Shown: positions 31,147-49,068 of the stretch, piece by piece | Layout: the number at the start of each line of letters is the position of its first letter | Position numbering within the stretch: position 1 is the first letter of the stretch | Source: Giardia intestinalis | Lineage: Eukaryota | Assembly (NCBI GenBank): GCA_000002435.2 | Contig: CM018792.1 | Strand: one strand, 5' to 3' | DNA length: 64,000 bases | The notes under the pieces: model-generated | The model's database searches: none | What the model saw: only the letters and a program-made list of their open reading frames with translations | What the model was told of the DNA's origin: nothing | Translations under genes and position numbers: made by a program

Positions 31147-33000
31147 CTACGCCTTGCCCCTGCAGATGAACCACCAGCAGAGGAATCCGACGAGGCCTCC
31201 TACAACAACAATCACAGCGACGGAGATCCCCGCGATGGCCCCCGTGGAAAGGCCACTCCTGTTGGTGCTGTCTCCTCCAGTATCTCCGCCGGTGCCATCG
31301 TCAGCCTTTTGTTGCGTTACGTAACAGGTGACAGGGCCATTGCCACCAGCTGGCGGGGCACAGCTTATGCAGTTTTCTACACCAGTTATTGCATTAGAGC
31401 TAGCCTTATCACTATCCGTGCATTTGAAGCATTTATCACCGGCACCTTTGTAATACCCTGCTAAGCAATCTGTGCAGGTTTCCTTACTACCCGCACACTT
31501 CACACATCCTTCAGTACACGCCGGACATTTTCCTCCAGCTGGGCTTTGTCCATTGGCACACGTTTGGCATTGTCCCTTATTCTGTGCAGCCGTACACACA
31601 GAGCTACCAGGAAGCTTCTGTGTGTTGTAGCATCCGCCCGATAACAGAGCGTAGTTTGCCCCACACTCAGTGCATTTCCCGCCACTTGCCTTACATCCGG
31701 AGGCATCTCTCGCTGTTGCAGGTATGGATGTGCAGACGCCGTCGACTGGGGCGTACCCCTCCTCGCACTGATCGCAGTACTTCGAGCCTCCGACGTTCAG
31801 TGAGCAGCCGTCGGCCTTGCAGTGGGCCATAAAGTCTCCCGTGCACTCCTTTATACAGGTACCCTTAGCATTCGTCTCATCACGCTTCAACACGTATCCC
31901 GGATAGCAGGCCGTGCACGACGTTTCTGCGTTAGTACTACAGCTTGCGCACGATTCGTGGCACAGATTACAAACGTTAGCGTCAGTGCGAGTTCCCGCGG
32001 GACAGGCATCTAAGCACGCGTCTCCCAAGGGGCTCAGCTTCTTTTCTGATCCGCAAGCTTCGCAGACGTTGTCCTTACTGCACTTTTCGCAATGCTCCAT
32101 GGGACACACAAAGCAGCCTGTTCCGGCTTCATTGGGTTTTTTAGTACCCTCGCAGGTAAGACACTTAACGGAATCTCCAGTCTTTGAGCACGTCTTGCAG
32201 TCGGCCACACCGCCCTCACTGACACTACCGCAGAGATGGCACTTTTTGTCCTCTGCTATTGGGAAGTGTGTGTTACCACATCCGTTTTCGTCAACACACG
32301 TGCCTGTCCCGTCGCTATTGGCCCCTTCTTTGAAGTATTGCTTACCAGTATCCTTGCAGGAGGTGCATTTATCCTCACCGTTGCCGGTGCACGTTCTACA
32401 ATCTGCATGGCACTGCTGACAGCTTGTAGTGCCATAGTATCCGTCCACACAGCTTTTACATGTGGCCGTCTGTTCTGCACTGCTTTGTCCGGGAGTTTTC
32501 GGGGCGTCGCACGTCGCACAGTTCTGAACCCCCTTATTATGATCCACACCGGCCGTGTTGTTGCATGCAATACAGGACTCCTTCGTTTTATCAGCGTCAG
32601 ATGCAGGATTCTTGAAGTACCCGTCGTGGCAAGCTATGCATATTCCATCCTTATCAGCCGTGGCAGTTCTATCGTTGCACACAAGGAGCCCGATATCGCT
32701 TCCCATCTCGTAGCACCCTCCCCTGTGCAGGAAGAAGCCGGCTTTACAAGATGTACATGTGCCATCATTCTTTGTTGTACATGCTCCTTCAGCATCCTCG
32801 CCTGTAGTTATGCACTTTCCATTGACAAGATGCTCTGCTGCTGTCGAGCACTGGGAGCAGAAGTTTGAGCCCCCAATCCAGACGTCGCACTTTCCTGTTG
32901 CGCACTGTCCTGTTTGCGGGTCACTGCTAGCCTCTGTGCATGTCGTTGCTGCCCATACCACTTGCAGGATGGCGATTCCGAAGATGATTTTCTCGAACAT
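31147..33000 (-). CDS. Variant-specific surface protein (VSP), 617 aa, complete
   Basis: The C-terminus is ...[33 protein letters not shown], the invariant VSP TM domain plus CRGKA tail. The ectodomain is Cys-rich with many CXXC motifs and GGCY motifs (HRGGCYEMG, LLSGGCYNTQ). The signal peptide is MFEKIIFGIAILQVVWA. The track start at 33021 is a GTG. The first ATG is at 33000. Confidence 0.95.
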   Translation of the reverse strand: MFEKIIFGIAILQVVWAATTCTEASSDPQTGQCATGKCDVWIGGSNFCSQCSTAAEHLVNGKCITTGEDAEGACTTKNDGTCTSCKAGFFLHRGGCYEMGSDIGLLVCNDRTATADKDGICIACHDGYFKNPASDADKTKESCIACNNTAGVDHNKGVQNCATCDAPKTPGQSSAEQTATCKSCVDGYYGTTSCQQCHADCRTCTGNGEDKCTSCKDTGKQYFKEGANSDGTGTCVDENGCGNTHFPIAEDKKCHLCGSVSEGGVADCKTCSKTGDSVKCLTCEGTKKPNEAGTGCFVCPMEHCEKCSKDNVCEACGSEKKLSPLGDACLDACPAGTRTDANVCNLCHESCASCSTNAETSCTACYPGYVLKRDETNAKGTCIKECTGDFMAHCKADGCSLNVGGSKYCDQCEEGYAPVDGVCTSIPATARDASGCKASGGKCTECGANYALLSGGCYNTQKLPGSSVCTAAQNKGQCQTCANGQSPAGGKCPACTEGCVKCAGSKETCTDCLAGYYKGAGDKCFKCTDSDKASSNAITGVENCISCAPPAGGNGPVTCYVTQQKADDGTGGDTGGDSTNRSGLSTGAIAGISVAVIVVVGGLVGFLCWWFICRGKA

Positions 33001-33943
33001 TGCCGGCAGCCCATAGAGCACGCAACACCAGGCGACGCTGCCACGTGGTAAGTGAGGATAATGTGCACCCTACGAGGATGCCCCGGTGTAGCGGATCTCT
33101 GGTGTCCTAGTGGCTTCTCCTATGTGTGGCGTCTCTAGGGACCAAGGAGAGAATGTGCATTATGGCATCTCAAGAGCGGCCCCTCGCACATCACCGGTAC
33201 CTATGACAGTAATCATCACTACGTGGATAGGTCCACTCAAGTAATGAATGCACCCACTGCTATGAAACTGGACCGATGCTCCTCACAAGAGCTGCCTGGA
33301 TAAAGGAGAGAGCCACCGACAAGCCTCAGCTGTGCTCTGTCCAGGACCACCACACAGGGGCGAGAAGTCGGCTGGCCGTCACTTTTTAGCAATGACACCA
33401 ACCACTGCCTCTGCTTGGTCCTCCTGGGATGCCTAGAGCGCTCACACATGGATTCTTGTGTGTCCTCCACGGCTATCTGGGCATAGTCGCCACGGTCTCT
33501 CGTAGTTCTGTTCCCTACTGTTACAGGCCACATGCTAGCCGCCTACACAGTACTAGAGCAGCTGTAGACAAGACCGAGGCGGATCGATGAACCAGTGTGT
33601 CTGGCTTCCCCTCTGGCTGTATCTTCTATTCAGTTCAACACTCTCAGATAGCATCCTTTACATAACAGATTTTGTTAAGTACATGGATCCATTCTTAACC
33701 TTCCACTGTTACTACGGACGACCGAGCTGTTTGGCTGGCGTATGCCTCTGTAGACGGTGTTATTCTAAACTATACAATTTACAGGGGTAGGCAGAGAGTA
33801 TGAGGACTGAAGAGAAGGGAACTCAGATAGAGTCCTAGCTCAGCGGGATAGTGTCATCGTGGTCACGTTATCAATGAGTGGCAGGCTTGCACATATAGAA
33901 ACCCTTTGGTACATATTGTGCTACGCTTTATGAAAAACGCTAA

Positions 33944-36322
33944 ATGCTCGGCCTTTTACCACTGGCTCTCCTTGCTTCTATTTGCAAAAGTTCAAGAGAT
34001 GCGTATTACAACAAGTTCGGCGTGGGATGTGAGGGCAAGCAGGAGAATTGCGCCCAGGATAGGTGCTTTTCCATAGGGTCATGGACGTCATGCACCCAAT
34101 GTATCCCTGGGTATGTTCCAATAGATGGAAAATGCCAGAATTACTCCGGAGCTAGCTCCCCTCCATGTACTCCAGATGATCCCAACTCACCGACTCGCTG
34201 CATCAGATGCACATCAACAGAAAATGTCTTTCTCTTTTATGGCAGCTGCTATACAATTACAACAGCACAGAACAGAAATCTGGGCAATTTCTTGTGCTCT
34301 GAAGCATCGAATGGTGTGTGCACTAAATGCTTTGAAAGTAAGCTTGAAAGATATGTCTTTACCAATCCAGACACAAGTGCAGCTGAGAAGTGCATCCTGT
34401 GCTCCGATACGGTCGGGTTCAATGGGTACAAAGGCGCCTCTGGGTGCCTAGACTGCCTTCCTCCCATCACTGATAAAATAGGCATCGCTCTGTGTGTTAA
34501 GTGTCACTATACTACCGAGGATAGACATTTTTATCCGATTGACTATCAATGCCAAGCCAAAGGGCCTCACAATTGCGTCAATGGTTACTGCACGTCATGC
34601 TACAAGACACATTTGTTCTATGAGTATGGATGTTATAGTCGGCACAGTTCGACTGGATTTGCCATATGCGCGGGGGCGAATCAGTACGAGCTAGATAATG
34701 TTACTATCTGCAAAGAGTGCGCAAATGCATCATACGCACCCAGGAACGGAGCATGCATTCTTATCAAGGAAAATCCATCTATTGAAGAGATCGCTTTTAA
34801 GTGCACAAAGGATCCAACTAAAGGACTATGCACGGCCTGCTCTAGCTCCGCGCCATCTTTCCTCTTCTACGGCGGCTGCTATGACGAGGACGCCCGTATT
34901 AGCTCAAAACTCTGTTCAAGAATTGGATCAAATGCCTGTGAACAATGGAATAGTGCTTTCAAATGGATCTTCTCTAAGAATGGCGATAACAATAAAAATG
35001 GATATCTGTGTGGCGATATTGCAAACGGTGGCATCTCTGGCTGTGCTACGTGTAACTATGCCAGCGGTGCTGTCACTTGCACGCGGTGCTCGGCAGGGTG
35101 CCTAGGAGTGGACGGGAAGTCCTGCAGTGAAGGCTGCAGCGGAGACACTCGGGGAGTGTGCACGAAGGTAACAGAGGGGAGCGAGTCAACTGAAGTGTCG
35201 TGTCGATGCGTCTGCAGGCCGACGTTCTACAACAGCTCCGGAACGTGTACACCATGTACGGACTCGTGCGCTGTCTGCAAGGATGGCACACTAACCGGCT
35301 GTCAGCAGTGCAGCCCCGGCAAGATCCTGAGCTTCTCGATCGTCTCTAGCGAGAGTGCAGACTGTGTCGATCAGTGTTCTGTTGGTAGTGAGTGTGCAGA
35401 GTGCGGCATCACCATCGACGGCAGCAGGTACTGCACGCGCTGCAAGGACGCAAGCACGTATCCGTTCAATGGCGTGTGTATTCCAAACACACAAAGAGAC
35501 GCGTACTGTACCAGCACGGCAAATGGTGCTTGCACTGCCTGCTCAGAAGCGGCCTTCCTGATGAACGGGGGCTGCTACACAACGGAGCACTATCCAGGAA
35601 GCACTATCTGTGATAAGCAGTCAAACGGAAAGTGTGAGAAGACCAAGGAGGGGTACGGGATATCGGCCGATGGAAAGCTGCTGGAGTGCGATCCGACATG
35701 TCTGGCGTGCACTGCCCCTGGCCCCGGCCGCTGCACCAGGTGCCCCTTTGGAAAGCTCCTGAAGAAGGTCTCGGGTGCCGCCACCGGGAGCTGCGTCGGC
35801 CTTAATGCCTGTGTAGACGGGTACTATGCAGACGGAGACGCGTGCCTGCCCTGCGCCACTCCGGGGTGCAAGACCTGCGGACATGCCTCTTTCTGCACAG
35901 AGTGCGCGGGGGAGCTCTTCGTGAGCCTGGACGGGCGGTCGTGCCTGGAGGAGTGCACCGGGGACAAGGTGGTGGGAGAGGTGTCCAGCGGCGTGCAGAG
36001 GTGCTGGTGTGAGCGGGGCTTCCTACCGGCACTGGACAGATCCGGGTGTGTGCTCCCAACCGAGTGTCCCCCTGACATGTCGTGGTGTGCTGCCTGCGAT
36101 ACGTCGGGTAAGTGTCTCTCGTGTGCCGCCTCGAATCATAACATCCAGACAGATCAGCGGACGTGTGCAGAGGGGTGCGGCGCCAGGGCCTCATCGAACC
36201 AGGGGCTGTGCATGTGCGAGCTTGACGCGGTCCTCAGAAGGGCATCTGTGTTTCGACCAAGGAGCTGGCCAAGAAGAGAACGGCGGCGATCGCAGGAGGG
36301 ACGGTGGCCGGGGTCATTGTGA
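33944..36322 (+). CDS. High-cysteine membrane protein (HCMP, VSP-like ectodomain), 792 aa as read; the reading frame breaks before the TM anchor
   Basis: A signal peptide [14 protein letters not shown] is present. CXXC/CXC-rich repeats with GGCY/GSCY motifs run throughout ([31 protein letters not shown]). The last ~30 residues ([28 protein letters not shown]) look like out-of-frame read-through. Confidence 0.85.
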
Positions 36323-36426
36323 TTGGGAGCCTGGTTGGCTTCCTTTGCTGGTGGTTTCTCTACCGGGGCAAGCGAATTGGTGCCTCTTTGAGTACTGTGG
36401 GACTCGTTCAATCCAAGTCTATGTAA
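36226..36426 (+). other. Out-of-frame (-1) TM anchor and cytoplasmic tail belonging to the HCMP locus
   Basis: The frame starting at 36241 reads [61 protein letters not shown], with its stop at 36424..36426. [11 protein letters not shown] closely mirrors the TM segment [11 protein letters not shown] of the neighbouring VSP. This frame has a TGA at 36223..36225, so the break lies between about 36,226 and 36,244. Confidence 0.75.
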
Positions 36427-37526
36427 CGCTCCCAAGAACTTGTTGATATACGTGTCTATGATAGGGCTATGCCCATATTGTGCTGAGCACCATTCTCGGT
36501 GTCCTTCTACAGTGAACAACTTGATCTGCGTCCACGCTGTCTTGCTGCGGCACCCCTGGGCATATTCTAGCTAACGGGGCAGAAAAGCGAAGTCTACTCA
36601 CATTATTCGCCTTGCATCTGCAAATCCGTGTGAGATCAGCGAGAAGCGGCTTCAGATACCCTTAGGTACCCTGCTTGCTAGTTGCCATCCCGAGGCACGT
36701 GATCACATCAGATACCGTTGTGAGCTTATCCCTCACACAAGTAATCATTAGCTTGGAGATGCAACCTGGTCCACCTGTACAGGGCCTTTTCCCCTGTGTA
36801 GACGTTACCAGGACAGAACAAGATGCACGAAGAACTCGTTGGCACCTGCTCTGCGCAAGTCTAGCAGCCGACATTATCTGACTTTGGATGGGCTTCTGTA
36901 ATTCTTCCTTTTAGGCATGGACTTGCTTCTGCACCAATGGCATGTGGAATATCCTAGTCTCTCAACTTAAGCACCTTTAGGAAGCAAACGCTATTTAGTA
37001 TTCAAAGGTACATCAGCTTCCCGGGTTGCCGTCGATGTCTAAGGCTATCTCTCTAGGAACTACTGTCAGCCTTGCATGCACTCATTCTAGTGCCCCATTA
37101 ATATAAGAGCTGCATTTCTTAGTCACAAGCATCAACAGCTAGTGAAGAGGTTCAATACTTCGAGAAGGTATTTCCTGGGGATCCATTCTATACTTGCAGT
37201 AATTAAAGCTCCTGCTGCAACCCTACTATTAGTTATCTGTTTTATTGGCTAAACTACACCTTTGCTACTGAACCTAGTGTGTTTCTAGGCATCACCAATG
37301 CTTGCATAGTCAACAGAAAATTGCGCTAAATCATTGGTACGGATGTACTTGTTACTATTTAATGTGCAATCCTTTCGTCTTTGTCTGCAGATAACCCGCT
37401 AATATTGAAGGAACAACAGAATTAAGACATATCTATGAGAAGCGCTGGAGAATATCCAGGCTTCAGATCCAGCAGTTCAGCTTACGCTAGGCTACTCACT
37501 CTATCATCAGTGATGAGATCACTTTG

Positions 37527-39686
37527 ATGAAACAGAGTAAACAATTTTATCACAAGGTTTGGGCAGAAAAGATTTGTACACACATTCCTCTTACTATGAA
37601 TCTCGCTGAAAAACTGAAATTAGACTATGAAATAAGGCTTCGGGAGGCACCTAGCAATAAGCTGTGGAGCCAGTATGCTCGTTGGGAGGCTTCTCAAGGC
37701 CGAGTAAGAGCTGCATGCGTCATTTGTGAAAGATACTTAGACTCTACCGCCGATCCATCTGAGGATATGTGGCTTCTCTATGCAGAACTGTCTCCTTCAC
37801 GCTCCATGAAGCTGGACATTTTTACCCGTGCTATCCAGCAACAGCCCCTTTCCACAAGATTACATCGCTCCATGCTACAGTGCTTCCTATCGCACGATGG
37901 AGCACCACTTTTGTCTATAGCAGACATAGAGCATTTAGTTAAGAACTGGATGAACAGGGTACTCGAGCATGGTTCTCCTAGCCATTTAGAGGCCCTGTTT
38001 AAGACTCTAGTTGATAGTCTAGAGCAACTAATTTGCTATAGCTCTATTCAGCAATGTGAGGAGCTTGCGCTTTTGCTTCTGCATGCTTATGCTTCTATTC
38101 CTGGAGCCAGAGACCCTCTGTGCTTTGTCTTTAATGCTCTTCAGCAGCTTATCGAACAATCTGGGTTTAATCGAAGAAAGCTGTTTATTAGTGCGCTCAA
38201 GATCTTCACGCTAATCTTTCCAACTCTGTCTTCCTTCAGCGAACAATATTTAGCTTTACATCGTCTTTATTTGCTGTACGAATTCATGCAGCCGCGCCTT
38301 CATTCTCTTTTCTTTGCTGAAACGCTGGTCTCTAGCCCTGTTAATAATACGAGTGAGTCACCCTTTAAATCAATCTATGCACTTCTATTTGCTGCTCGGA
38401 CTAACCTGGAGACAGCTCCTTCGCTGGGTGTTACCGAACTCTGCCTATTATTGGCATATGACTCTCTTCTAACACTACAAGTAGATGATAGAATTTTTCA
38501 ATCTGGTTGTTGTTCAATCTTTAATATTGTGAGCCCGGTGCAACTGTTTGGTGAATCCTGGTTTGACAGACTCAGTGTTATCCAGCTCATTATTGAATCT
38601 GAGCTGTTTGTGCTTAGAAAAACTACAATCACAGAAGTGCTGAAAAATTTAGTACTATCGATGGGCAGCCATTCTTATCAGTCTAATAGCTTATCTGATG
38701 AGCAACTTGTTCAGCTTTACTCTTCAATCCAGCATCTCCTTCAGCGCTTCCCCTCTGAACCTGAAGCATTTAAAAGTGTAGAGTACTTGTTGAGCGTTTG
38801 CCTACCCACCATTCTGTCCAGGTTCGACCAACTTTTCGGATTAGTAGAAGGCCTTCTGCAGATGCTACTTACATCTCCCAGGTGTGCACGGTTTACTGAC
38901 AGGATACTCTCAATTATAGAAGAAGTGGATCCTATGCTTTTTGATCCGTGTACAATCAGGTTGGTGTTGAGGGCAATGGCGTCAAGAACGTTGATCACCG
39001 AAAATCTATCTGGCACAACGCTAGCTCGTATAGTATCCTGCAGTATTATTAATGGTGAGATAACGATGGCTATAGATGTCCTGCTATTAGCTCGGAACAA
39101 ACAGCCATGCTTTGAATTGTTCCAAAATATTATTAGAATCATATTTGATAATACAGAAGCTAAAGGCATGTTCAGCACAACAATTAGGTGCCTAAGTGAA
39201 ATAACATCCATTTTATTAAGTGACGTAGAGTTTCGTAATGATATTATAAACTTCTCGTCAAATACAACCTTAGATTTGAATTACATATCTGTCAAAGATT
39301 TCCTAGATTGCTCAGCTATTGTATTGTTGCTTTTTCTTGCATGCATGACGCAGCAATTAGCAGAAAACCACATATTCGATGGTGCAATCTTTGAAGATAT
39401 CATTGGGAGCGTGCTTAAGCAGGTTGAGATTGTGCACATAGGCGTTAAGATGGGCGATATTATCCTAGTGGATCAGTACGCGAAGCTCAGCAGCTTGATT
39501 GGTACAGTGTTTGAGTACTATGAGCTGATTACCGGTGCAGAAGCAATATCGGGGAGAGTCGCGCTCGAGTGTGTAGTGAGTGTAAAGGACAAGGACCAGA
39601 GTAGATCTCTTCTTTTATATGAGGTTGTCCCGATTGACCGCTCCGATGGAGATGGGCTCCTCAAGCTGTTGGACAGAGTGGAGTAA
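37527..39686 (+). CDS. Hypothetical protein, 719 aa, helical; N-terminal HAT (half-a-TPR)-like repeats
   Basis: The track ORF starts at a TTG (37524). The ATG is at 37527. The N-terminus KLWSQYARWEASQGRVRAACVICERYLDS...DMWLLYAELSP...DIFTRAIQQQP follows the HAT pattern W..Y..fE...G....A..i.ER.L seen in RNA-processing factors. The rest is Leu-rich and helical. The function is not assigned. Confidence 0.7.
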   Translation: MKQSKQFYHKVWAEKICTHIPLTMNLAEKLKLDYEIRLREAPSNKLWSQYARWEASQGRVRAACVICERYLDSTADPSEDMWLLYAELSPSRSMKLDIFTRAIQQQPLSTRLHRSMLQCFLSHDGAPLLSIADIEHLVKNWMNRVLEHGSPSHLEALFKTLVDSLEQLICYSSIQQCEELALLLLHAYASIPGARDPLCFVFNALQQLIEQSGFNRRKLFISALKIFTLIFPTLSSFSEQYLALHRLYLLYEFMQPRLHSLFFAETLVSSPVNNTSESPFKSIYALLFAARTNLETAPSLGVTELCLLLAYDSLLTLQVDDRIFQSGCCSIFNIVSPVQLFGESWFDRLSVIQLIIESELFVLRKTTITEVLKNLVLSMGSHSYQSNSLSDEQLVQLYSSIQHLLQRFPSEPEAFKSVEYLLSVCLPTILSRFDQLFGLVEGLLQMLLTSPRCARFTDRILSIIEEVDPMLFDPCTIRLVLRAMASRTLITENLSGTTLARIVSCSIINGEITMAIDVLLLARNKQPCFELFQNIIRIIFDNTEAKGMFSTTIRCLSEITSILLSDVEFRNDIINFSSNTTLDLNYISVKDFLDCSAIVLLLFLACMTQQLAENHIFDGAIFEDIIGSVLKQVEIVHIGVKMGDIILVDQYAKLSSLIGTVFEYYELITGAEAISGRVALECVVSVKDKDQSRSLLLYEVVPIDRSDGDGLLKLLDRVE

Positions 39687-39697
39687 GGCACAATGCA

Positions 39698-41602
39698 CTA
39701 TGGTAGGGCAACGGTGAGGTCGTAGGAGCTTCCACTAATAGTAGTGGGTGAAAGAAACGTGGCTCTGTAAATAATCAGTCCGCACACATTGCTTGGCTCT
39801 TCACTAGTGACAGTTACAGGGGCTTCGGGACGCACATCGTCGGGGCTTGCCTTTCCAGTAGGTACCTCAGAGGCGAAGGTTTCATCAGTTTCATGCTCAG
39901 TCTCTCTGAAGGAAGTGATGGCGGGCATAAGAAATAAGTCATCGTCGTCGTCATTAGGAGGATGCTGACATTCATCTTCGGTTGATGTTGGAGGAATCTT
40001 GTGTAAAACATCTGTGCAGGTAGGCATATCCTCATCAAGTGAAGGAGCATCTGGAGTATCACATAGTCCAGACGAATGGACACACTGACGGTAGGTGTGC
40101 ACAACCTCAGAAGGTGCATCGTCATATAACTCGGGCATGGAGACACGATCGATATTGGAGAGTGGTCGTGGGAGACTACAAAGCTCACCTTGGATCTTCT
40201 TTAGAATTGCGTGTATTCCACCATCGGTGCTGGCTTTGCTCTTTCTCGGAAGTGCCCCGGGCGCCGGAGGTTTGGCGTTCCTTGGCATAGAAGACCCGTC
40301 TGTCGGGGCGTGATATTTGGTAAAGAGCGAGCCACTGCCACTACGCTGTGATGGAGCGGAGCGAGTTGAATAAACCTCGTATTGATCGGTCTCTTCCCTG
40401 TGCTGGACAGGGACTACCACAATCTCCTTTCCCTGATGGAGATACTCGTCGGCTACCTTTCTAAACTCTGTAATACGCTGTCCTTCTTTGATTAATAGCT
40501 GCCTTATCTCGTCACTTGACACAGGCATGTCAGGCGCCCCAAATGCTGTCTCCAGAAATTGTGAGAGCATTTCAGGAAGAGAACTGAAGTCCATAGGCTT
40601 CAGAGTCGGTATTGGTAATCCCAAGAGTAAAAATAGGGAAACATCTGCAGAGGTAAATATCCCCGTTTGGTCCGATCTTTGCTCTTTCGGGGCAGAATCA
40701 TCAACATTTGAGGTTATCCAAACACCGTACTCCACTGACCTTTTATAAAAGGCGGCCACGGCATCGCTTACAGTGTCAATACCCACAAATTCACCTTTGT
40801 CAGGGTCATCGAAAAATCCAATGAGGAGCATCAGTTTAATAACAACCTCCTCTGTGAAGATGTTTTCTGTTAAAAGACGTGCATACCATGATTCTGTGCA
40901 GTTTTGACTAATTGCTTCAGCTGAAAACAGAGGAAGATTCAGGGGCAGCTTGCATTGAGCTCTTGTTCTCTCTAAGGCAAAAGTTACTCTTGATGTCAAC
41001 GATCTAATGCTGAGAACGAGTTCTGCAATACGTTTTCTTGAGCTAGTACTCGCTTTTGTGTGGTTCTCATTTAGCATCATCAAGAAGCTGCGAATAGCTG
41101 CTTGCCTTTGGTGGGTAAGATCTACATATTCTTTTTTAAGACCAAGAATAACTCGCAAGCGGCACCCATAGATCTTTTGCGCGGCAGTGTCTCCTTTTAG
41201 TACATTCCATGCATACCGCCGCTCGCCCTCAGACAGATATAAGGCCTCCCATATTCGAGAAATCGTTGCCTTCTCGTCTCCACTGCGTATTTTTAGCCGT
41301 CCAGATGCTCCTGGTGAAGTGGTAGGGGTTCCAGCACTTGAGGGCAAAGAGTCCCTCAAGCTTAGGCTTGGCTTCCGTATATCTACGGACTTGCTCTCTG
41401 AAATACTGTGTCCTAGTGAGCGCTGCGTCAGGGGTGATTGGCGCTGATAGATACTCCTTTCCACAAGGAGATTTTTTCTGCGATAGGGCGTGGCATCCGA
41501 GTGCCTTCTAGATGTTGCAGCAGAAGCTGTCGAGGCGGAGACCCCTAGACTGGCGTCCGAGGATGCAGTCAGCAGACGCCCTGAAAAGGCCGAGGGCTCC
41601 AT
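39698..41602 (-). CDS. Hypothetical protein, 634 aa (Ser/Thr-rich N-terminus, acidic DDDDD patch near the C-terminus)
   Basis: This is a long ORF with its ATG at 41602 (ttaagactATGgag). No family was recognised. Confidence 0.7.
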   Translation of the reverse strand: MEPSAFSGRLLTASSDASLGVSASTASAATSRRHSDATPYRRKNLLVERSIYQRQSPLTQRSLGHSISESKSVDIRKPSLSLRDSLPSSAGTPTTSPGASGRLKIRSGDEKATISRIWEALYLSEGERRYAWNVLKGDTAAQKIYGCRLRVILGLKKEYVDLTHQRQAAIRSFLMMLNENHTKASTSSRKRIAELVLSIRSLTSRVTFALERTRAQCKLPLNLPLFSAEAISQNCTESWYARLLTENIFTEEVVIKLMLLIGFFDDPDKGEFVGIDTVSDAVAAFYKRSVEYGVWITSNVDDSAPKEQRSDQTGIFTSADVSLFLLLGLPIPTLKPMDFSSLPEMLSQFLETAFGAPDMPVSSDEIRQLLIKEGQRITEFRKVADEYLHQGKEIVVVPVQHREETDQYEVYSTRSAPSQRSGSGSLFTKYHAPTDGSSMPRNAKPPAPGALPRKSKASTDGGIHAILKKIQGELCSLPRPLSNIDRVSMPELYDDAPSEVVHTYRQCVHSSGLCDTPDAPSLDEDMPTCTDVLHKIPPTSTEDECQHPPNDDDDDLFLMPAITSFRETEHETDETFASEVPTGKASPDDVRPEAPVTVTSEEPSNVCGLIIYRATFLSPTTISGSSYDLTVALP

Positions 41603-41618
41603 AGTCTTAAATTTTTAC
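41603..41618. promoter_or_regulatory. 16 bp AT-rich spacer (agtcttaaatttttac) between two divergent ATGs
   Basis: This is the only sequence between ATG 41602 (-) and ATG 41619 (+). Any initiator elements for both genes must lie here or inside the neighbouring coding sequence. Confidence 0.4.
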
Positions 41619-42029
41619 ATGAAAGGTGGGACCATTGCGCAGCGCCGGGATGCCATGATGAGAGCGCATATTCTATCAAAGGTAAGGCAGCGGACAGATG
41701 CAGAAATCAACAGCACATTTTATACACCAGAAGAAATTGCTTCCCACGCAAGCATGGACGACGCGTGGATGTCCTACAGAGGGAAGGTATATGACATTAC
41801 ACACTACGTTCGTTATCACCCAGGAGGGCTACAATGTATGCAGGAATACATGGGAAAGGACATGACCCACGCGGCAGACTCCGTCCACAAATGGGTAAAT
41901 GTGGCAACAATGCTACGTCCCTTGGCGATCGGAACAGTAAAAACACACGTTGACAATTCTAATGCCTTTTCTTGCCTACCAACAATTGCTGAAGTAGCAG
42001 AAGAAGAAAATAATAAGGATGCTTCTTAG
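41619..42029 (+). CDS. Cytochrome b5-like haem-binding protein, 136 aa
   Basis: ...EEIASHASMDDAWMSYRGKVYDITHYVRYHPGGLQCMQEYMGKDMTHAADSVH... carries the b5 core (D.W....G.VYD.T.....HPGG) and a second His downstream. The track ORF begins at 41490 with a non-ATG codon inside the upstream gene. The first ATG, at 41619 (MKGGTIAQRR...), gives a b5-sized protein. Confidence 0.85.
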   Translation: MKGGTIAQRRDAMMRAHILSKVRQRTDAEINSTFYTPEEIASHASMDDAWMSYRGKVYDITHYVRYHPGGLQCMQEYMGKDMTHAADSVHKWVNVATMLRPLAIGTVKTHVDNSNAFSCLPTIAEVAEEENNKDAS

Positions 42030-42133
42030 ACCAATTCACTAGATCAGCAGTGACATCCTCCCCTCCATAGATTGATTGATATCTTTTGAATCTGTGAATT
42101 GCTGCGTATTCAAATTTTGGCAACCAAAAGATA

Positions 42134-42568
42134 ATGCCGCCGTTTAAGCGCCAGCCCGTGAAGCTTGAGGACCTACTTGCTCCACGGGGTCTTCAAACAG
42201 CGATCAAAGAGATCTGCCAGTGCGTGGACGAGGCGCGAGCAGATAGAGAGTCTGGGGTGACGTTAGCTCGACGCATAGCAGGTCAGTTTGTCAGGTGGAA
42301 TAGGGAAGTCTTTGGACCCATTCCGCCGATCCGCACACTCCGACGAATTAATGCAATGGTGAAAGCCCAAGTCATTGCAAATTACTCTTCGTCTGCATTC
42401 GAGAGGATGGTGGGAGTTACTGGCTCTGAAGAAGATTTTGACAACCTAATCCACCAGACATCGAGGCAGAGGCCGCACACATCTGCTATTAAAGTTCTTC
42501 AAAAAGATGACTCATTGGACTCACAGAGGGACACCTTGAGAATCAGCGATAGCGATGACATCCACTAA
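42134..42568 (+). CDS. Hypothetical protein, 144 aa
   Basis: The ATG at 42134 is preceded by aaaagataATG. The ORF is clean and no family was recognised. Confidence 0.6.
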   Translation: MPPFKRQPVKLEDLLAPRGLQTAIKEICQCVDEARADRESGVTLARRIAGQFVRWNREVFGPIPPIRTLRRINAMVKAQVIANYSSSAFERMVGVTGSEEDFDNLIHQTSRQRPHTSAIKVLQKDDSLDSQRDTLRISDSDDIH

Positions 42569-42804
42569 AGACGTTTGTCAGTAGAGCCATTTGCGCATTT
42601 ATCTGCTAATGCTGGATGCTTCAGTAAATTTACTGTAACTCCCCCGTTCTGCGCCGTGGGGCACGCCTCTCCCGCTTTCGCCGCTGCAACTCCGCATACT
42701 CCTCCTCGGAGAGAATGATCACAAACTCCTGGCCTCTCTGCTGAGATGGCTGCGTAGGGGGCATTCAAATCTCAACCTTTTATAGTTTACATACACCTCA
42801 ACCC

Positions 42805-45800
42805 TCAATCAAAGATTTCTAGAAGAGACGGGGCCATGCTCTTGTCTGGGCGATCGCGGAACCATTCTGTCATCTGCTGTTTGACGCTCGTGAGCTTTTC
42901 ACGAATTGTGCTCGGGATGTTCCCGCCTGCCTCCTCGTACTCTCTCAGCCGGTCCTCCAGGGACTTAACGTATGCGGCATCGCGCCCGTCGCCCTGGCCA
43001 TTCTTAAGCGCATCATCCTTGCGGAGCAGCTCCGCTTGGAGGCGGTCCATCTGCTCGAGCATGGCCTTGAACTCAACTTCCTTGGCATCAGGTGGCAGGC
43101 TATTGAAGTCAAGGCACTGCTTAAGGCGCATACACTCAGCTTTGAGAATGGCGTAGAGGGAGGGATCCACCTCATCCAAGTCCCGCAGATACGCCTTTGC
43201 AGTTTGCTCTGGGGATAGCGCTGCGCACAGGCCCATAATGGTTTGCTCACTATCTTTCAGGCTCGCCTCCATCGACCTGACCTCTCCCGTCTGGGACATG
43301 CTTTGCTCGCGCATGCCAGTCATCTCGTTCTCGTTGTAGAAGCGTGCATCCTTAAGAGACATTAGCTCCTTGTCTTTGGCAGTGTTGGCTCGCTCAAGAG
43401 CTTCATTAGATTTGTTGAGCTGGGAGATTATTGCCAGTAGCTCCTGGATCTGCATATCTTTGTCCAAAACGTCCTCCAGCGCTCCTTCGTCGGCTCGTGA
43501 CCTGTAGTGATGCAATAGCTTGAGCCTTTCCAGTTCTTTCTTGGCTACTTCGAAATCCTTCTTCAGTGCTGCCAGCTCGGCCGGATCTGCGCCAGCTCCA
43601 TCGCCAGAAACGCCCTCGCCAGGCGCATTAATCGTTTCGTCACGAGACATGCTCTTGATTGTTGCCAACAGCTTCTCGCACTCCTTCTCTTTGCTCTCCA
43701 TCGTGCTCTGAAGGTCCTTGACCTGCTTGCTTGTGGAAGTGTTGGCCTTCTCTAGGCTGCTAATGGTGTCATTTGCTCGCTCCAAGGCAGCGCGAAGGTT
43801 GGCAATTTCGTTTGCGGCATCGGTGGACATGACAGGCTGCATGGGCGGAGACATCGGGCCTACAACCGACCGCATTGGCGATTTGGCAGCCAACTTCGGT
43901 GAAAGGCTCATGCAGAGAGATGAAACGGTTCTTTCCTGATAGATAAGCGCGTCATTCAGCTCATCGATCTCGCGGTCCTTTGCCATGTTGGCCTCTCTCA
44001 GGGCCGCCATTGCCTGGGATTGCTGGGCTAGCGTCTCCGTGAGGGTCTTTATCTCTGCATCCTTATCGTTCATGCTGTGATATCTAGCATATGCGGCCTC
44101 CACCGACGCCAGACGCCTTTGTGCTTCTGCTAGGCTTGCCCGAAGTTGCTGCAATTCTGCATCCTTGCGCTCCAGCTCCTCCGAGACATTCTTTCCTGCA
44201 TTTCCAGCTGCCCTAAGAGCGTTGCTCACGCTTTCTGCATCGCGCACCCTACTCATAAGATTGTCGATTTCCTCCTTGAGTTTTCTGTTCTGCTCCAGGA
44301 GCTCGAGTTGCGTCCCCAGAGCAGTGCTATCGCGAGCCGCATCGGAGACTACGCTAGGAGACCTTGTGCGCAGATCCTCCTCTAGTTGACGAATCTTCTC
44401 CTCTCTGCTCTTCAATTGAGATTGCAGGTCGTCAGCATCTGCTAATTGACCCTTGAGCGTTTCCACTTCTTTTTCCTTTTCTACTAATTTGTCTGTGAGG
44501 GAATCGACAGTATCTCGCAAGACCTGTAGGTTGTACTCATGTGCGGTGTCGACGTTATCGTGCTGGTTATTTCGAAGCCTGTGTAGCTCGTCCTTTGCGC
44601 TGGCAAGGTCCGACCTAATGTTATTTAACTCCTCTTGCTTTCTGAGCAGCTCGTTCTCCTTCTCTGCATAGCTAGACTCGAAGATCCTCATCCTGGCCTG
44701 AGCTTCTTCAAGGAGAGGTCTGATAGTCGCAACCTCCTTCTCCTTGAGATCCAGGCGCTCGCGCAAGCGTGCAATTTCATCGGCATCAGACATCGAGCGA
44801 AGCTTGCTGAGCTCTTCCTGGTCACCGGCAGCATCAGCCTTAGTCTTCAGGAGCTTGTCAAGAGCTTCGCCGTGATACTGACGAAGTTCATCAATCGCAC
44901 GCTCAAGGTTACTGATATCCACGTACGACGCGCCACCGACAAATTGGGCACACAGTTCGTTCTCCATGACCCTGATCTTCTGGGCCGCCTCGTTTGTCAG
45001 CGTAGTAAGATTATCAATGGTGCTCTGCGCATTAGAAATCTTGTATTCCAGCTCCTGAATGCGAGCGTTCTTCTCCATAATCTCCCGCTTAAGCTCTTCG
45101 ATCTCCCGGTCTCGCTCCTCCAAGAGCTGCTCGAGCTCCTTGAGCCTTCTCTCTAACTCACGTGCGTCAATGAGATCCTTTTCTGAGGCAGTAAGCTGCT
45201 CACGGAGTGCCATCAGCTCACGCTCAACTTCCTCTGGGATCAAAGGCCTTGCCTCAAGAGTCTTGATCCGCTGCTGCGCCTCTTTAAGCATAGTAAAGAC
45301 CGCCGGGTCGACGTTTGGTCGTGCATTCAACTGTTCCGTAAGATCCTCAATCTCTCTGTTGAGCTTGTCGCACAGATTCCTGCTATTCTGCATTACCTCC
45401 TCCACATACTTACGGGCCTCGGACTCTCCCGTTCGGGCTTGGTCGACTCCCTTCATAAGCGCCTGAACCTGGGCTTCTAGCTCCTCCCGAGCCTTTGTGA
45501 GCTCTTCTAGGCACTCCTTCTGCTGCTGCGAGGCCATTTCTGAGATCCGATGCTCATCTTCCATGCAGATGATGGACGTGCGAAGCTTAGTAAATGAGTC
45601 TTCCTGGACACGAATGGCATCCAGAAGCCTGTCGATGGTAAGGTCCTTTTCGAGAAGCTCTTTATCGCGCTTCTCAGCCGTGTCCGTGAGCTCCTTGAAG
45701 TCACGCATGAGGTCGCTGTGGGCCTGCTCCCCGGTAGCCTGGAGCTCCTGAAGAGTCTGAAGCTCACGATTGAGCTCGTCAATCTTAATGTCCTTCTCTG

Positions 45801-47832
45801 TCAATTGCTGGCGGTAAGGATCGAGCTCAGAATTGTGGATATGTGTGCTCTTCAAGTCAGTATACTCCTTCTCGAGTCGCTTGATGCGATAGCGGGCTTC
45901 ATCCAGTTGAGGGGAGAGCGTGTTTATCTGCATGATCTTGTCCTCTATCTCAGCCTCCTTCATTCTCAGCTGCTTGCTAAGATCTTCGTACTCGTCCTGA
46001 AGGTTGCTTAGTTGCTCGCGAAGCTGCTCCTTGCCTTGCTGTTCCTGCAAAAGTTTCTGCTCTAGATCGCGTAGCTTACCGTCGCTAGCTTTGAGCTTCG
46101 AGGTGAGAGCGTTGAGATCTTCCTCCTTCTGCGTATTGTCTGCGTTGAGTGTACGGATCCTCTCCTCGAGGTTAGCACCGGCGGCAGCAGTCGTCTCATT
46201 CGAAAGCGTGGCATAAAAATTCTCAAAGTAGCGGATGCGCGCGTTGGCATCCACAGCAGCTGACTTAGCCCGGTCAAGCTCCTCATTGAGAAACATAATC
46301 TGGCTCATGTTCTCGCGAATTCTGTCCTCTTTTTCTTTCAGCTCCCAGTTATTTTTGTTAACGAGGTCGTCAATCTCTCTTGTCTTTTCATTGACCTGCT
46401 CCTGAAGTTGCTTGATTCTCTCTCGGCTGGCATCATCAACGGCTGCACCAGCTGCCCGCTCCTGGGACGCTACAAGGTGCTCCAGATAGCGGAGCCGGGC
46501 CTTCTCATCCTCGCCGGTCGGCCTCCTGTCCAGCTCCTCCGACAGCTGCCTGACCTTCTCAGCCTTGTCTGAGAGTTGGCGCTGCATGTCCCGGAGCCTT
46601 TCCTGATAGTCCGATTCACTCTTGGTCAGCTCAGCTATCCGACCGAGAAGTTCCTTGCGTGCCCGTTCAAAGTCTTCGTTATTCTCGCTAGCAGGTGACT
46701 CTGCAATAAGTCGCTCAATCAACTTGATTCGCTCCTTGGCCTCACGGAGCTCCTCGCTTGTATCTATGGGCCCTGCGGCCGATCTCTTAAAGACAGCATT
46801 GTCGCCGCCCTCCTTTTCCAACTGTCGCTGGAGCTCATCAATTGTGTTGGCAAGGTCAGCAATTTTGCGCCGCAACGCTGGTCGCTCGACCTCCGTGCAT
46901 GTCTGCACCTGCTCACGCAACTTCTTGATCTCTGCATTGAGCGCATCGATTTCAGGCTGATATTTTTCATCGCCCGAGAGCTTCCCGCTTCCTAGACTAT
47001 CGCGAAGCTTATTAATTGTGCGCTCCTTCACGGCAAGAATCTTTATCATGCGACTCAGCGCGGAAGTCTTGTCATTTAGAGACTTTTTAAGTTCGATTAC
47101 CTCATCGTCTGCGGCCTGCCCCGCATCCTGGAGCTTGTTCACCTCCCCACTAAGGCTCGTGGCTGTCAAGCGAAGCCCGTCAAGTCCAGCCATCGCACTC
47201 TCCTTAGCGCTGATGAGGTTTGTAACAGAGTCATGACGAGAGGCTACAGATTTAATAAGGTTGTCGTTAACTGTCTGGATGCTTTTCAGCTTCTCGCGCA
47301 TCTCCTCCGGGCTCAGGGTACTGATGTCGGCGTCAGAGTGAACACGATTGCTCTGCGAAAGCAGGCTGTCTGCTTCAAGGAGCTTTGCGCCCTGAATCTG
47401 TGCACGTGCAACCAGATCTCGCATGTTTTCCTCGTGGAGAAGACGCAAATTCTCGATGCTCTCTTTAAGATGCGCGATCTCGGCGTCCTTTTCTCTTACC
47501 GTTGCAGTTAGTGTTTCGGCCGCAACCAACTCTGTGTCCATGGACCGGTCGCAGTACGGACAACGGTTACCCTTGCCCACGCCTTTCCTCTGTGCTGCGT
47601 TGCGCAAGGTAGGCGATGCTGGACAAAGCTCATCGGGGTCAATTCCCTGCTCTGATATCTTCTGCTTAAAAATCCTGCAGCTAGAGTCCGTCTCAGTGTA
47701 CAAATCACGGAGCGCTTTGCACTGCTCCTTGGTGTCTTTGAGCTCGTTGCAGACGCGTAGAAGCTTTTCGCGGAGCTCCGGGGCTGCAAGCTTATCGATT
47801 CCGACTAGGTAATCGTCCATGCCTCCGGACAT
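42805..47832 (-). CDS. Large coiled-coil protein, 1,675 aa
   Basis: The sequence is almost entirely heptad-like and rich in E/K/L/Q/R (myosin-tail/SMC-like). The ATG at 47832 is preceded by tttttaaaaacaaaaATG. A single CPYC lies near the N-terminus. The many plus-strand ORFs across it are antisense artefacts of the biased composition. Confidence 0.9.
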   Translation of the reverse strand: MSGGMDDYLVGIDKLAAPELREKLLRVCNELKDTKEQCKALRDLYTETDSSCRIFKQKISEQGIDPDELCPASPTLRNAAQRKGVGKGNRCPYCDRSMDTELVAAETLTATVREKDAEIAHLKESIENLRLLHEENMRDLVARAQIQGAKLLEADSLLSQSNRVHSDADISTLSPEEMREKLKSIQTVNDNLIKSVASRHDSVTNLISAKESAMAGLDGLRLTATSLSGEVNKLQDAGQAADDEVIELKKSLNDKTSALSRMIKILAVKERTINKLRDSLGSGKLSGDEKYQPEIDALNAEIKKLREQVQTCTEVERPALRRKIADLANTIDELQRQLEKEGGDNAVFKRSAAGPIDTSEELREAKERIKLIERLIAESPASENNEDFERARKELLGRIAELTKSESDYQERLRDMQRQLSDKAEKVRQLSEELDRRPTGEDEKARLRYLEHLVASQERAAGAAVDDASRERIKQLQEQVNEKTREIDDLVNKNNWELKEKEDRIRENMSQIMFLNEELDRAKSAAVDANARIRYFENFYATLSNETTAAAGANLEERIRTLNADNTQKEEDLNALTSKLKASDGKLRDLEQKLLQEQQGKEQLREQLSNLQDEYEDLSKQLRMKEAEIEDKIMQINTLSPQLDEARYRIKRLEKEYTDLKSTHIHNSELDPYRQQLTEKDIKIDELNRELQTLQELQATGEQAHSDLMRDFKELTDTAEKRDKELLEKDLTIDRLLDAIRVQEDSFTKLRTSIICMEDEHRISEMASQQQKECLEELTKAREELEAQVQALMKGVDQARTGESEARKYVEEVMQNSRNLCDKLNREIEDLTEQLNARPNVDPAVFTMLKEAQQRIKTLEARPLIPEEVERELMALREQLTASEKDLIDARELERRLKELEQLLEERDREIEELKREIMEKNARIQELEYKISNAQSTIDNLTTLTNEAAQKIRVMENELCAQFVGGASYVDISNLERAIDELRQYHGEALDKLLKTKADAAGDQEELSKLRSMSDADEIARLRERLDLKEKEVATIRPLLEEAQARMRIFESSYAEKENELLRKQEELNNIRSDLASAKDELHRLRNNQHDNVDTAHEYNLQVLRDTVDSLTDKLVEKEKEVETLKGQLADADDLQSQLKSREEKIRQLEEDLRTRSPSVVSDAARDSTALGTQLELLEQNRKLKEEIDNLMSRVRDAESVSNALRAAGNAGKNVSEELERKDAELQQLRASLAEAQRRLASVEAAYARYHSMNDKDAEIKTLTETLAQQSQAMAALREANMAKDREIDELNDALIYQERTVSSLCMSLSPKLAAKSPMRSVVGPMSPPMQPVMSTDAANEIANLRAALERANDTISSLEKANTSTSKQVKDLQSTMESKEKECEKLLATIKSMSRDETINAPGEGVSGDGAGADPAELAALKKDFEVAKKELERLKLLHHYRSRADEGALEDVLDKDMQIQELLAIISQLNKSNEALERANTAKDKELMSLKDARFYNENEMTGMREQSMSQTGEVRSMEASLKDSEQTIMGLCAALSPEQTAKAYLRDLDEVDPSLYAILKAECMRLKQCLDFNSLPPDAKEVEFKAMLEQMDRLQAELLRKDDALKNGQGDGRDAAYVKSLEDRLREYEEAGGNIPSTIREKLTSVKQQMTEWFRDRPDKSMAPSLLEIFD

Positions 47833-47988
47833 TTTTGTTTTTAAAAAAAGGCGGTATTTGGATTAAAAAACCGAAAAACGGACCAAATTCTGGGCTCAAA
47901 AATTTGAAAAGTTCCCAAAATTTGCGGACGAGCCCAAAGCCAGCACATAAAGTGTACAGGAAAGTAAGTTTACCTTTGCTTGCTGCCG
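47833..47988 (-). promoter_or_regulatory. 156 bp AT-rich spacer upstream of the coiled-coil gene with three CAAAT(T)-type motifs
   Basis: On the plus strand the motifs are CCAAATTC (47883-47890), TCAAAAATTTG (47896-47906) and CCAAAATTTG (47915-47924). A T/A run lies directly before the ATG. Confidence 0.3.
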
Positions 47989-49005
47989 TCACTTGCCCAT
48001 GTTGGCCATGAGCCTCTTGTAGATGTCCTGCTGCTTACGCGCCTCGAGGGCAATTTGGGCGTCGCACTTCTTTAGATCGTTCTCGAACTCCTGTACCTTG
48101 TCGTTCTGGCCGGCGGCCTTTGCAATGTCAAGGCCCATGTCTATATATTTCCTGGCCTCCGCGCTGCGGCCAGCCCCCATCGCACCGCGCCCCACTCTCT
48201 GGCAGAGCTTGAGACGCAGCTCGACGTTCTTCGACGCCCTCTCTTCCTTCTCTTCGAGAATCTTCATGCCTTCGCGTGCGTGGGAGCAGCAATCAGCATA
48301 GTCCTTCATGCGCAGATTGCAGAGTGCCCAATTCCCAAAGAGGGTTGCACGGAGGACACACCTCTCCTCCTCCACCTCTGGAGTGCTGTCAATGAAGTAC
48401 TCCAGGAGCTGCGTGCCCTTGTCGTACTTGGCAGCTGCCTTTTTGTACTTTCCGCTCTTGAAAAGAGCATTCCCTGCCTCCTGACGAACCTTTGCAGCAG
48501 CAAGCTTCTCCTCGTTGGTATGAGGATACTCGTGGTCCTTTTCGACCACATCCAAAAGCTCTATTTCAAACTGTAGAGTAGCGTCTGCAGGAATAGATCC
48601 GGAACCCTTGCTCCCGTAGGCATAATCCGAAGCGATGGTGAAGAGAGATTTTTCTCCAACCCGCATACCACACACGCCCTCGTCCCAGCCGCGTATAACA
48701 GACATATTTCCTATGTCGAAGTTGAAGGGCTGGCCTCGTGTAACAGACGAGTCGAAAACGGTCCCGTTCAGCAACTTACCGGTGTAGTGGACATATACGG
48801 TAGCGTCTGATTGCGGGCAGACCTCTGCGTCTTCTGGGCCCGCGACAAGTACCTGCTTCAGGATTGCACCATTTCCCTTGACGTCGATGGTCTCAGGGCT
48901 CTCCTTGAACTTGTTATATATCTCCCGCTCCTCATCGCTGCAAAAGGTCGGCATAAAGACCTCGGTCACTTCTCCAGCCGGCTCTGGGGCACTGTTATCG
49001 AACAT
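47989..49005 (-). CDS. FKBP-type peptidyl-prolyl cis-trans isomerase with C-terminal TPR domain, 338 aa
   Basis: The FKBP core VYVHYTGKLLNGTVFDSSVTRGQPFNFDIGNMSVIRGWDEGVCGMRVGEKSLFTIASDYAYGSKGSGSIPADATLQFEIELLD parallels FKBP12 (VVHYTGMLEDGKKFDSS...[39 protein letters not shown]...IPPHATLVFDVELL). TPR-like helices follow (AGNALFKSGKYKKAAAKYDKG...). Confidence 0.9.
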   Translation of the reverse strand: MFDNSAPEPAGEVTEVFMPTFCSDEEREIYNKFKESPETIDVKGNGAILKQVLVAGPEDAEVCPQSDATVYVHYTGKLLNGTVFDSSVTRGQPFNFDIGNMSVIRGWDEGVCGMRVGEKSLFTIASDYAYGSKGSGSIPADATLQFEIELLDVVEKDHEYPHTNEEKLAAAKVRQEAGNALFKSGKYKKAAAKYDKGTQLLEYFIDSTPEVEEERCVLRATLFGNWALCNLRMKDYADCCSHAREGMKILEEKEERASKNVELRLKLCQRVGRGAMGAGRSAEARKYIDMGLDIAKAAGQNDKVQEFENDLKKCDAQIALEARKQQDIYKRLMANMGK

Positions 49006-49068
49006 TTACTTTTTTGGAGAGGATCAATTTGATTCAATTCCACTGAATCAATTAATCACTGAATTACT

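Follow-up and report, generated by a model that had tools for sequence, protein, structure and literature searches.

The HCMPs of Giardia were defined as type-I membrane proteins of at least 400 amino acids, with at least 10% cysteine and at least 20 CxxC and/or CxC motifs, that have one C-terminal transmembrane (TM) segment followed by a cytoplasmic tail other than the VSP-specific CRGKA (Davids et al. 2006; PMC1762436). The same study assigned 114930, 112828, 114089, 114617 and 114042 of the WB isolate to HCMP Group 4, a group that was renamed CRMP in a more recent preprint (Rodriguez-Walker et al. 2022; doi 10.1101/2022.03.07.483299). That preprint considers most HCPs to be probable pseudogenes, and its Table 3 lists GL50803_115202, a gene on chromosome 4 of Giardia intestinalis WB-C6, as an example of a TM domain and tail that lie in another reading frame; it calls the gene a probable pseudogene and counts it as one of three HCPs with a signal peptide and without a TM domain. 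Here we examine this gene within a stretch of 64,000 nucleotides from WB contig CM018792.1 (assembly GCA_000002435.2), which we refer to as the window and in whose coordinates all positions are given. The split-frame anchor of GL50803_115202 has already been published for the same gene, and our finding of it is an independent rediscovery. What we add is the exact lesion, which is the loss of the C of an ACG codon between positions 36236 and 36237, its polarity as judged from an intact syntenic orthologue in the isolate DH, and the finding of no recoding signals around it.

The annotated product is no different in kind from the HCP/SCRP class of the WB annotation, and the decision tree of the 2022 preprint placed it in the SCRP class (signal peptide, no TM domain; Rodriguez-Walker et al. 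2022). The closest intact relatives of the gene belong to HCMP Group 4: the WB paralogue P0045 (827 amino acids) and the DH paralogue P0044 (828 amino acids) are 74–100% identical, in 50-residue windows, to the protein obtained when the missing base is restored (hereafter the repaired protein). It is like Group 4 in its signal peptide, in its cysteine content, in its motif counts (24 CxxC, 4 CxC and 2 GGCY, against 23–24, 3 and 2–3 in the group; PMC1762436) and, in the −1 frame, in a TM segment and a YRGKRIG...SKSM tail. It is unlike Group 4 in that the annotated product has neither TM segment nor tail, both having been lost because of the one-nucleotide deletion. VSP pseudogenes split across frames, such as pVSP GL50803_0050472 (Rodriguez-Walker et al. 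2022), offer a second parallel, as there too an indel puts the TM domain and tail in the other frame. Those pseudogenes, however, have accumulated several indels and stops, a clear sign of age, whereas in GL50803_115202 there is a single lesion, the ectodomain is free of stops and the anchor has hardly changed, which leads us to regard it as much younger; its tail, moreover, is not CRGKA. A third comparison is with gag-pol of Giardia lamblia virus, whose −1 programmed frameshift depends on a slippery heptamer together with a structure downstream. The host organism and the direction of the shift are the same as here, but at this locus neither the heptamer nor the structure was found.

Six open reading frames (ORFs) of the window match WB proteins exactly. 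The translation of the annotated 792-amino-acid ORF matches XP_001708391.1 / KAE8303503.1 / UniProt A8BAG1 exactly, a protein annotated as 'High cysteine protein' with the gene id GL50803_115202 / GL50803_00115202. The gene appears in a 2020 supplement with 792 amino acids on chr4, and is placed on NC_051859.1 in the supplement of the 2022 preprint (Rodriguez-Walker et al. 2022). With 792 residues, 11.7% cysteine and the CxxC and CxC counts given above, the annotated product has the length, cysteine content and motifs of an HCMP as laid down by Davids et al. (PMC1762436), but it lacks the TM segment of a type-I membrane protein, and it is for this reason that the database name is 'High cysteine protein' rather than HCMP. 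A tail other than CRGKA exists only when the gene is read in its ancestral or repaired form; as annotated, the product has no tail of any kind. Nor is the gene a VSP, because neither of its frames ends in CRGKA; that tail is present in the neighbouring VSP gene (31147..33021, −). The closest homologues of GL50803_115202 are annotated Group 4 HCMPs that align with it collinearly over the full length, and clustering at 90% groups it with P0045 and a second WB paralogue, P0001. Judged by these alignments, the gene is best described as a member of HCMP Group 4 by descent.

Near the 3′ end of the gene, native sequence moves from one reading frame to another. The annotated frame is native through ...CMCELDAVL (residue 764) and then continues for 28 residues of which 10 are arginine, in agreement with the initial annotation of this DNA, made from the letters alone, which had described an ORF ending in an Arg-rich read-through. 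The same annotation had claimed that the −1 frame encodes the missing anchor, and this claim held. The −1 frame is open from 36226 and specifies a 66-amino-acid peptide with its stop at 36424–36426. When this peptide alone was compared with the Pfam profile PF03302 (Giardia VSP), it matched positions 365–396 of 397 with E = 7e-10 and 38.7 bits (gathering cut-off, 31.4 bits), and its last 48 residues (A19–M66) are identical to the C terminus of the intact DH orthologue. Because of the match to the C-terminal end of PF03302 and the identity to the DH orthologue, we take the anchor frame to be genuine family sequence rather than a chance ORF. The whole-protein PF03302 score is 142.6 bits for the repaired protein versus 116.9 bits for the annotated ORF, and a TM-grade hydrophobic segment is confined to the repaired protein, in which the Kyte-Doolittle 19-residue maximum is 2.28; beyond its signal peptide, the annotated ORF reaches 1.2 at most. 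The anchor core had also been described as close to that of the neighbouring VSP, and the two do have LVGFLCWWF in common.

The initial annotation had confined the break to the interval between a TGA in the anchor frame and about 36244, and alignment with DH sequences narrowed it to a single position. We reached the corresponding DH locus via the DH orthologue of the gene neighbouring GL50803_115202. The DH contig AHGT01000010.1 (locus L014) is 96.3% identical to window positions 32561–51602 over 19 kb and has, at the same position between a 719-amino-acid gene and the VSP, an intact orthologue of 823 amino acids (L014:15178–17649). In DNA alignments, both this orthologue and a DH paralogue (locus L001) read CTCACGAA where the window reads CTCA-GAA. 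This gap is the sole one of the whole 3′ region, in which both DH genes read GT[TC]CTCACGAA[GA]G and the window reads GTCCTCA-GAAGG; over a longer stretch at the lesion, both DH genes read CTCACGAAG and the window CTCA-GAAG. Because there is a single one-nucleotide gap relative to both DH genes, we read the lesion as the loss of the C from a threonine codon, ACG. Threonine occupies this codon in all nine relatives aligned over the region. The DH syntenic orthologue, the DH paralogue and eight further family members read ...AVL-T-[KR]... and stay in frame into the anchor. The family members of 823–834 amino acids run from ...C[MV]CE.DAVLT[KR]G.C... straight into ...AAIAGGT.AGV...GFLCWWF[LI][YC]R.KR...KS[MVI]. 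Restoring the C yields a protein of 827 amino acids that matches this family consensus, close to the roughly 826 that had been foreseen for a repaired ORF. Among the aligned relatives, its peptide GICVSTK is peculiar to this locus.

The syntenic DH orthologue also gives the change its direction. Because that orthologue is intact, the change is young and limited to the WB lineage, and the comparison with other isolates that the initial annotation had proposed thus sets a disabling one-nucleotide deletion in WB against an intact 823-amino-acid gene in a syntenic outgroup, as expected of a young pseudogene. The P15 locus L015 (protein P0008) was set aside as an outgroup for polarity, its downstream DNA not being syntenic, and the WB paralogues P0045 and P0001 were compared at the protein level only. 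In the WB-C6 sequence, then, a single-nucleotide frame break parts the HCMP ectodomain from its own TM anchor. The features of the locus are collected in Table 1, which includes a putative polyadenylation signal downstream of the anchor-frame stop; AGTRAA is the usual Giardia polyadenylation motif (PMC1762436; Rodriguez-Walker et al. 2022).

Table 1. Features of GL50803_115202 and its 3′ end, in window coordinates.
Feature	Position	Strand	Basis
ORF of GL50803_115202: Group-4-type HCMP ectodomain, then out-of-frame tail	33944..36322	+	Exact protein match; Pfam PF03302, E = 1e-33
Hydrophobic, signal-peptide-like N-terminal segment (boundary approximate)	33944..33988	+	Kyte-Doolittle 12-residue maximum of 2.34 at residues 2–13
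TGA in the anchor (−1) frame, 5′ limit for the frame break	36223..36225	+	Frame translation
Tail of the annotated ORF, read out of frame: 28 codons plus TGA at 36320–36322	36236..36322	+	ORF translation
Lesion: one C absent from the ancestral Thr codon A-C-G	between 36236 and 36237	+	Alignment with two DH genes
Ancestral frame resumes in the −1 frame: juxtamembrane end of the ectodomain	36238..36282	+	Fits family consensus T[KR][GD]xC[VA][SP].[KR][ED].A[KR]K[RK]
TM segment, −1 frame	36283..36360	+	Kyte-Doolittle; PF03302 positions 365–396 of 397; identity to DH orthologue
Cytoplasmic tail plus TAA, −1 frame	36361..36426	+	Identical to DH syntenic orthologue and DH paralogue P0044
AGTGAA, putative polyadenylation motif, after the anchor-frame stop	36511..36516	+	Sole downstream AGTRAA match

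We think that GL50803_115202 is probably a recently disabled Group-4-type HCMP gene, a young pseudogene in the functional sense. The loss of one C from the threonine codon in the WB-C6 genome puts the last 63 codons out of frame, and translation of the annotated frame yields a signal peptide, 764 native Cys-rich ectodomain residues and 28 junk Arg-rich residues. Without a TM segment or cytoplasmic tail, the locus is no longer able to encode a type-I membrane protein; low-level transcription persists, whatever protein is produced would be soluble or secreted, and no recoding would restore the anchor. The deletion and its polarity, the intact orthologue, the lost TM segment and the agreement of the assemblies are observed; that the change abolished function, and was not an adaptive move to secretion, is what we infer. 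We prefer a recently disabled gene to a maintained secreted derivative, and leave the little probability that remains to recoding, an error of assembly and an intact allele in the minority. Of the outcomes that the initial annotation had offered, an indel in the sequence is disfavoured because the assemblies agree, and occasional frameshifting lacks support because recoding signals were not found; of the two that are left, a young pseudogene is in our view likelier than a secreted product without an anchor.

Several observations speak against a disabled gene and for its strongest competitor, which accepts the deletion as real and holds that the gene still functions, encoding a Cys-rich protein (HCP/SCRP) that is secreted for want of an anchor and is possibly useful at the host interface. 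The signal-peptide-like N terminus and the 764-residue ectodomain are intact, and the ectodomain has no internal stop. The gene is transcribed, contrary to one result that had been named as refuting the proposed frame break, the absence of any transcript: transcript was measured at a logCPM of ~7.5, with a slight increase when the parasite meets host cells (logFC +0.37 and +0.58). A 2017 secretome study, with a threshold of two peptides per protein, listed GL50803_115202 (then annotated 'VSP') among the WB-specific secreted proteins and also among the secreted proteins with a signal peptide (PMC5739509), suggesting that some of the protein may be made and released. In addition, dN/dS relative to the DH genes is 0.25–0.29, similar to the 0.23 between the two intact DH genes, with no detectable relaxation.

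Other observations weigh against this reading. The secretome peptides may be common to paralogues, as 50-residue windows are 74–100% identical when compared with P0045 and 71–100% identical when P0045, P0001 and DH P0044 are considered, and the public proteomes re-analysed in 2022 gave no peptides for GL50803_00115202 (S13 table of the preprint), although 14/16 members of its SCRP class have some. Antisense transcripts exceed sense transcripts (42–69 TPM, transcripts per million, versus 11–20 TPM; S9 table of the preprint), the antisense level being 3–4 times the sense level. The 28-residue Arg-rich junk tail is without counterpart in the family. The intact syntenic DH orthologue and the nearly unchanged, untranslated anchor indicate a recent change confined to the strain, on which selection has not had time to leave a visible mark. 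The dN/dS values are silent on constraint since the deletion, because all pairs fall within 0.23–0.29 and because segments derived from paralogues make up the gene as a mosaic. On balance, the idea that the WB deletion turned a membrane-anchored HCMP into a truly released, anchorless Cys-rich ectodomain is one that we entertain only tentatively, and we continue to prefer a recently disabled gene.

The mosaic structure is evident from the comparison with DH. In steps of 50 codons, the gene and its DH orthologue agree at between 58% and 99% of nucleotides, while the flanks are 96% identical, and this pattern points to gene conversion among family members. In the blocks of low identity (codons ~251–400), the match to a DH paralogue at a non-syntenic locus is 92–97%.

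A sequencing or assembly indel, with the true gene being one intact 827-amino-acid HCMP, would explain why one added base gives a perfect family-consensus protein, and indels are known in PacBio assemblies. The 2020 WB assembly is a de novo PacBio assembly polished with Quiver, and its authors noticed homopolymer frameshifts, for which reason they corrected 85 indels with 100x Illumina data. We nevertheless judge an error to be unlikely, and indeed to have very little chance of being the cause, because two assemblies agree, because the later one underwent the Illumina indel correction, because the site is not a homopolymer, and because independent authors saw the same split. The older WB assembly dates from 2007 and was made from Sanger reads, and the same 792-amino-acid product, junk tail included, is found in the older annotation (EukProt copy of XP_001708391.1) and in the 2020 assembly (KAE8303503.1); the RefSeq version of this protein is still.1, whereas the neighbouring VSP changed version between the two annotations. 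The lost C would stand alone between an A and a G, with no run of at least five identical bases within 36150–36430. The split recorded by the independent authors was seen in RefSeq 2.1 (Rodriguez-Walker et al. 2022).

Short-read assemblies leave some room for an indel, in that the Logan contigs 100% identical to the window (more than 20 runs), which carry the neighbouring 719-amino-acid gene, all end at 36315 or 36518, and none crosses 36236. A protein search with the last 120 residues, junk tail included, returned two short unrelated fragments only and no Logan or ENA fragment with the tail, and a metagenome scan for either allele of the lesion site gave no matches. As an observation in its own right, the two shared end points, 36315 and 36518, show that short-read assemblies from more than 20 runs break at a repeat boundary, namely where the gene encodes its TM segment and tail.

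Still less probable than an assembly error is a reference that represents the majority allele of a tetraploid genome, with an intact allele in some of the four genome copies and the anchored protein still being made. The Illumina correction of the 2020 assembly altered an indel only at 50% or more read support, so that a minority allele would have gone unreported, and this counts against a disabled gene. No second allele, however, was present in the data that we examined, the metagenome scan for either allele being empty. Morrison 2007 and Xu 2020 are also said to have found very low allelic heterozygosity in WB, which argues in the same direction.

The least credible alternative is that programmed −1 frameshifting or transcriptional slippage at times restores the anchor and yields both secreted and membrane-bound forms: the anchor frame is open over 36226–36426 and is −1 relative to the ORF, and Giardia ribosomes do make −1 frameshifts on Giardia lamblia virus RNA, but no slippery heptamer and no homopolymer of at least five bases was found, the downstream 100 nucleotides fold no better than shuffled sequences, and the anchor is in frame in the orthologue and all paralogues. 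The searches behind this statement found no X_XXY_YYZ heptamer in the 0 frame over 36150–36322 and, under a relaxed re-pairing rule, still no slippery site over 36226–36300. The minimum free energy of the 100 nucleotides downstream was −28.9 kcal/mol versus a shuffle mean of −31.2 (z = +0.77), in a model that does not include pseudoknots. The split-frame arrangement occurs in none of the relatives that cover the region, all of which encode the anchor in one frame. Programmed −1 frameshifting was rejected on the lack of a heptamer, the lack of a stable downstream structure and the lack of conservation of the split, and transcriptional slippage on the lack of a homopolymer of at least five bases.

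Lesions at the C-terminal end are found elsewhere among these proteins. The WB paralogue P0001 (XP_001704473.1, HCMP Group 4, 804 amino acids, 87% identity), on the 4,018,654-bp chromosome contig, ends in ...GSLVGFLCW and so lacks the last part of the TM segment and the entire cytoplasmic tail of its relatives (~24 residues), which gives this WB subfamily a second C-terminal lesion, of another kind. Three other proteins, P0012 (a WB 'High cysteine protein' of 589 amino acids), P0046 and P0050 (from DH and ENA assemblies), have a common C terminus, ...CWCERGFYSHGPRV.R.NPPPRSCVKTGT.QA.ST.VTGSPSSPQSV, that looks like an out-of-frame reading. Because this frameshift is common to sub-assemblages AI and AII, it would be older than that of GL50803_115202.

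Other parts of the window drew our attention as well. The VSP (31147–33021, −) and the Group-4 HCMP (33944–36426, +) stand head to head in WB, at the syntenic DH locus (L014) and at the non-syntenic P15 locus (L015), and the divergent pair may have been duplicated as a unit. The 634-amino-acid ORF GL50803_14126 (39698–41602, −) overlaps the start of a divergent cytochrome-b5 gene (~41490–42029, +) by ~113 nucleotides; gene calls on Logan contigs give versions of 588 or 549 amino acids, and the annotated start codon may lie too far upstream. At the left end of the window, a stop-free minus-strand frame of 7,344 codons runs from ~22034 off the window edge (window 1–22034) and looks like a giant Giardia gene cut by that edge; because this frame runs off the window, no ORF of at least 250 amino acids is listed before 25466. 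The same interval has a lower GC content (~0.45) and a positive GC skew, consistent with a giant minus-strand frame.

For annotation, our results mean that GL50803_115202 is better read as a frameshifted Group-4 HCMP than as a member of a separate 'High cysteine protein' class, and that a proteomic or transcriptomic match to it needs scrutiny, lest it be shared with P0045, P0001 or another close paralogue. Should the truncated product truly be secreted, which we regard as possible but doubtful, the locus would show how anchorless Cys-rich proteins originate, since it would illustrate, naturally and in one strain, the descent of secreted Cys-rich proteins (HCP/SCRP, tenascin-like) from membrane-bound family members. 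The practical consequences are otherwise small and current understanding is unchanged; what we describe is probably ordinary gene decay in a fast-turning multigene family. For the study of that turnover, GL50803_115202 provides a clean and datable example, with one lesion, an intact orthologue in the sister sub-assemblage and a gene-conversion mosaic.

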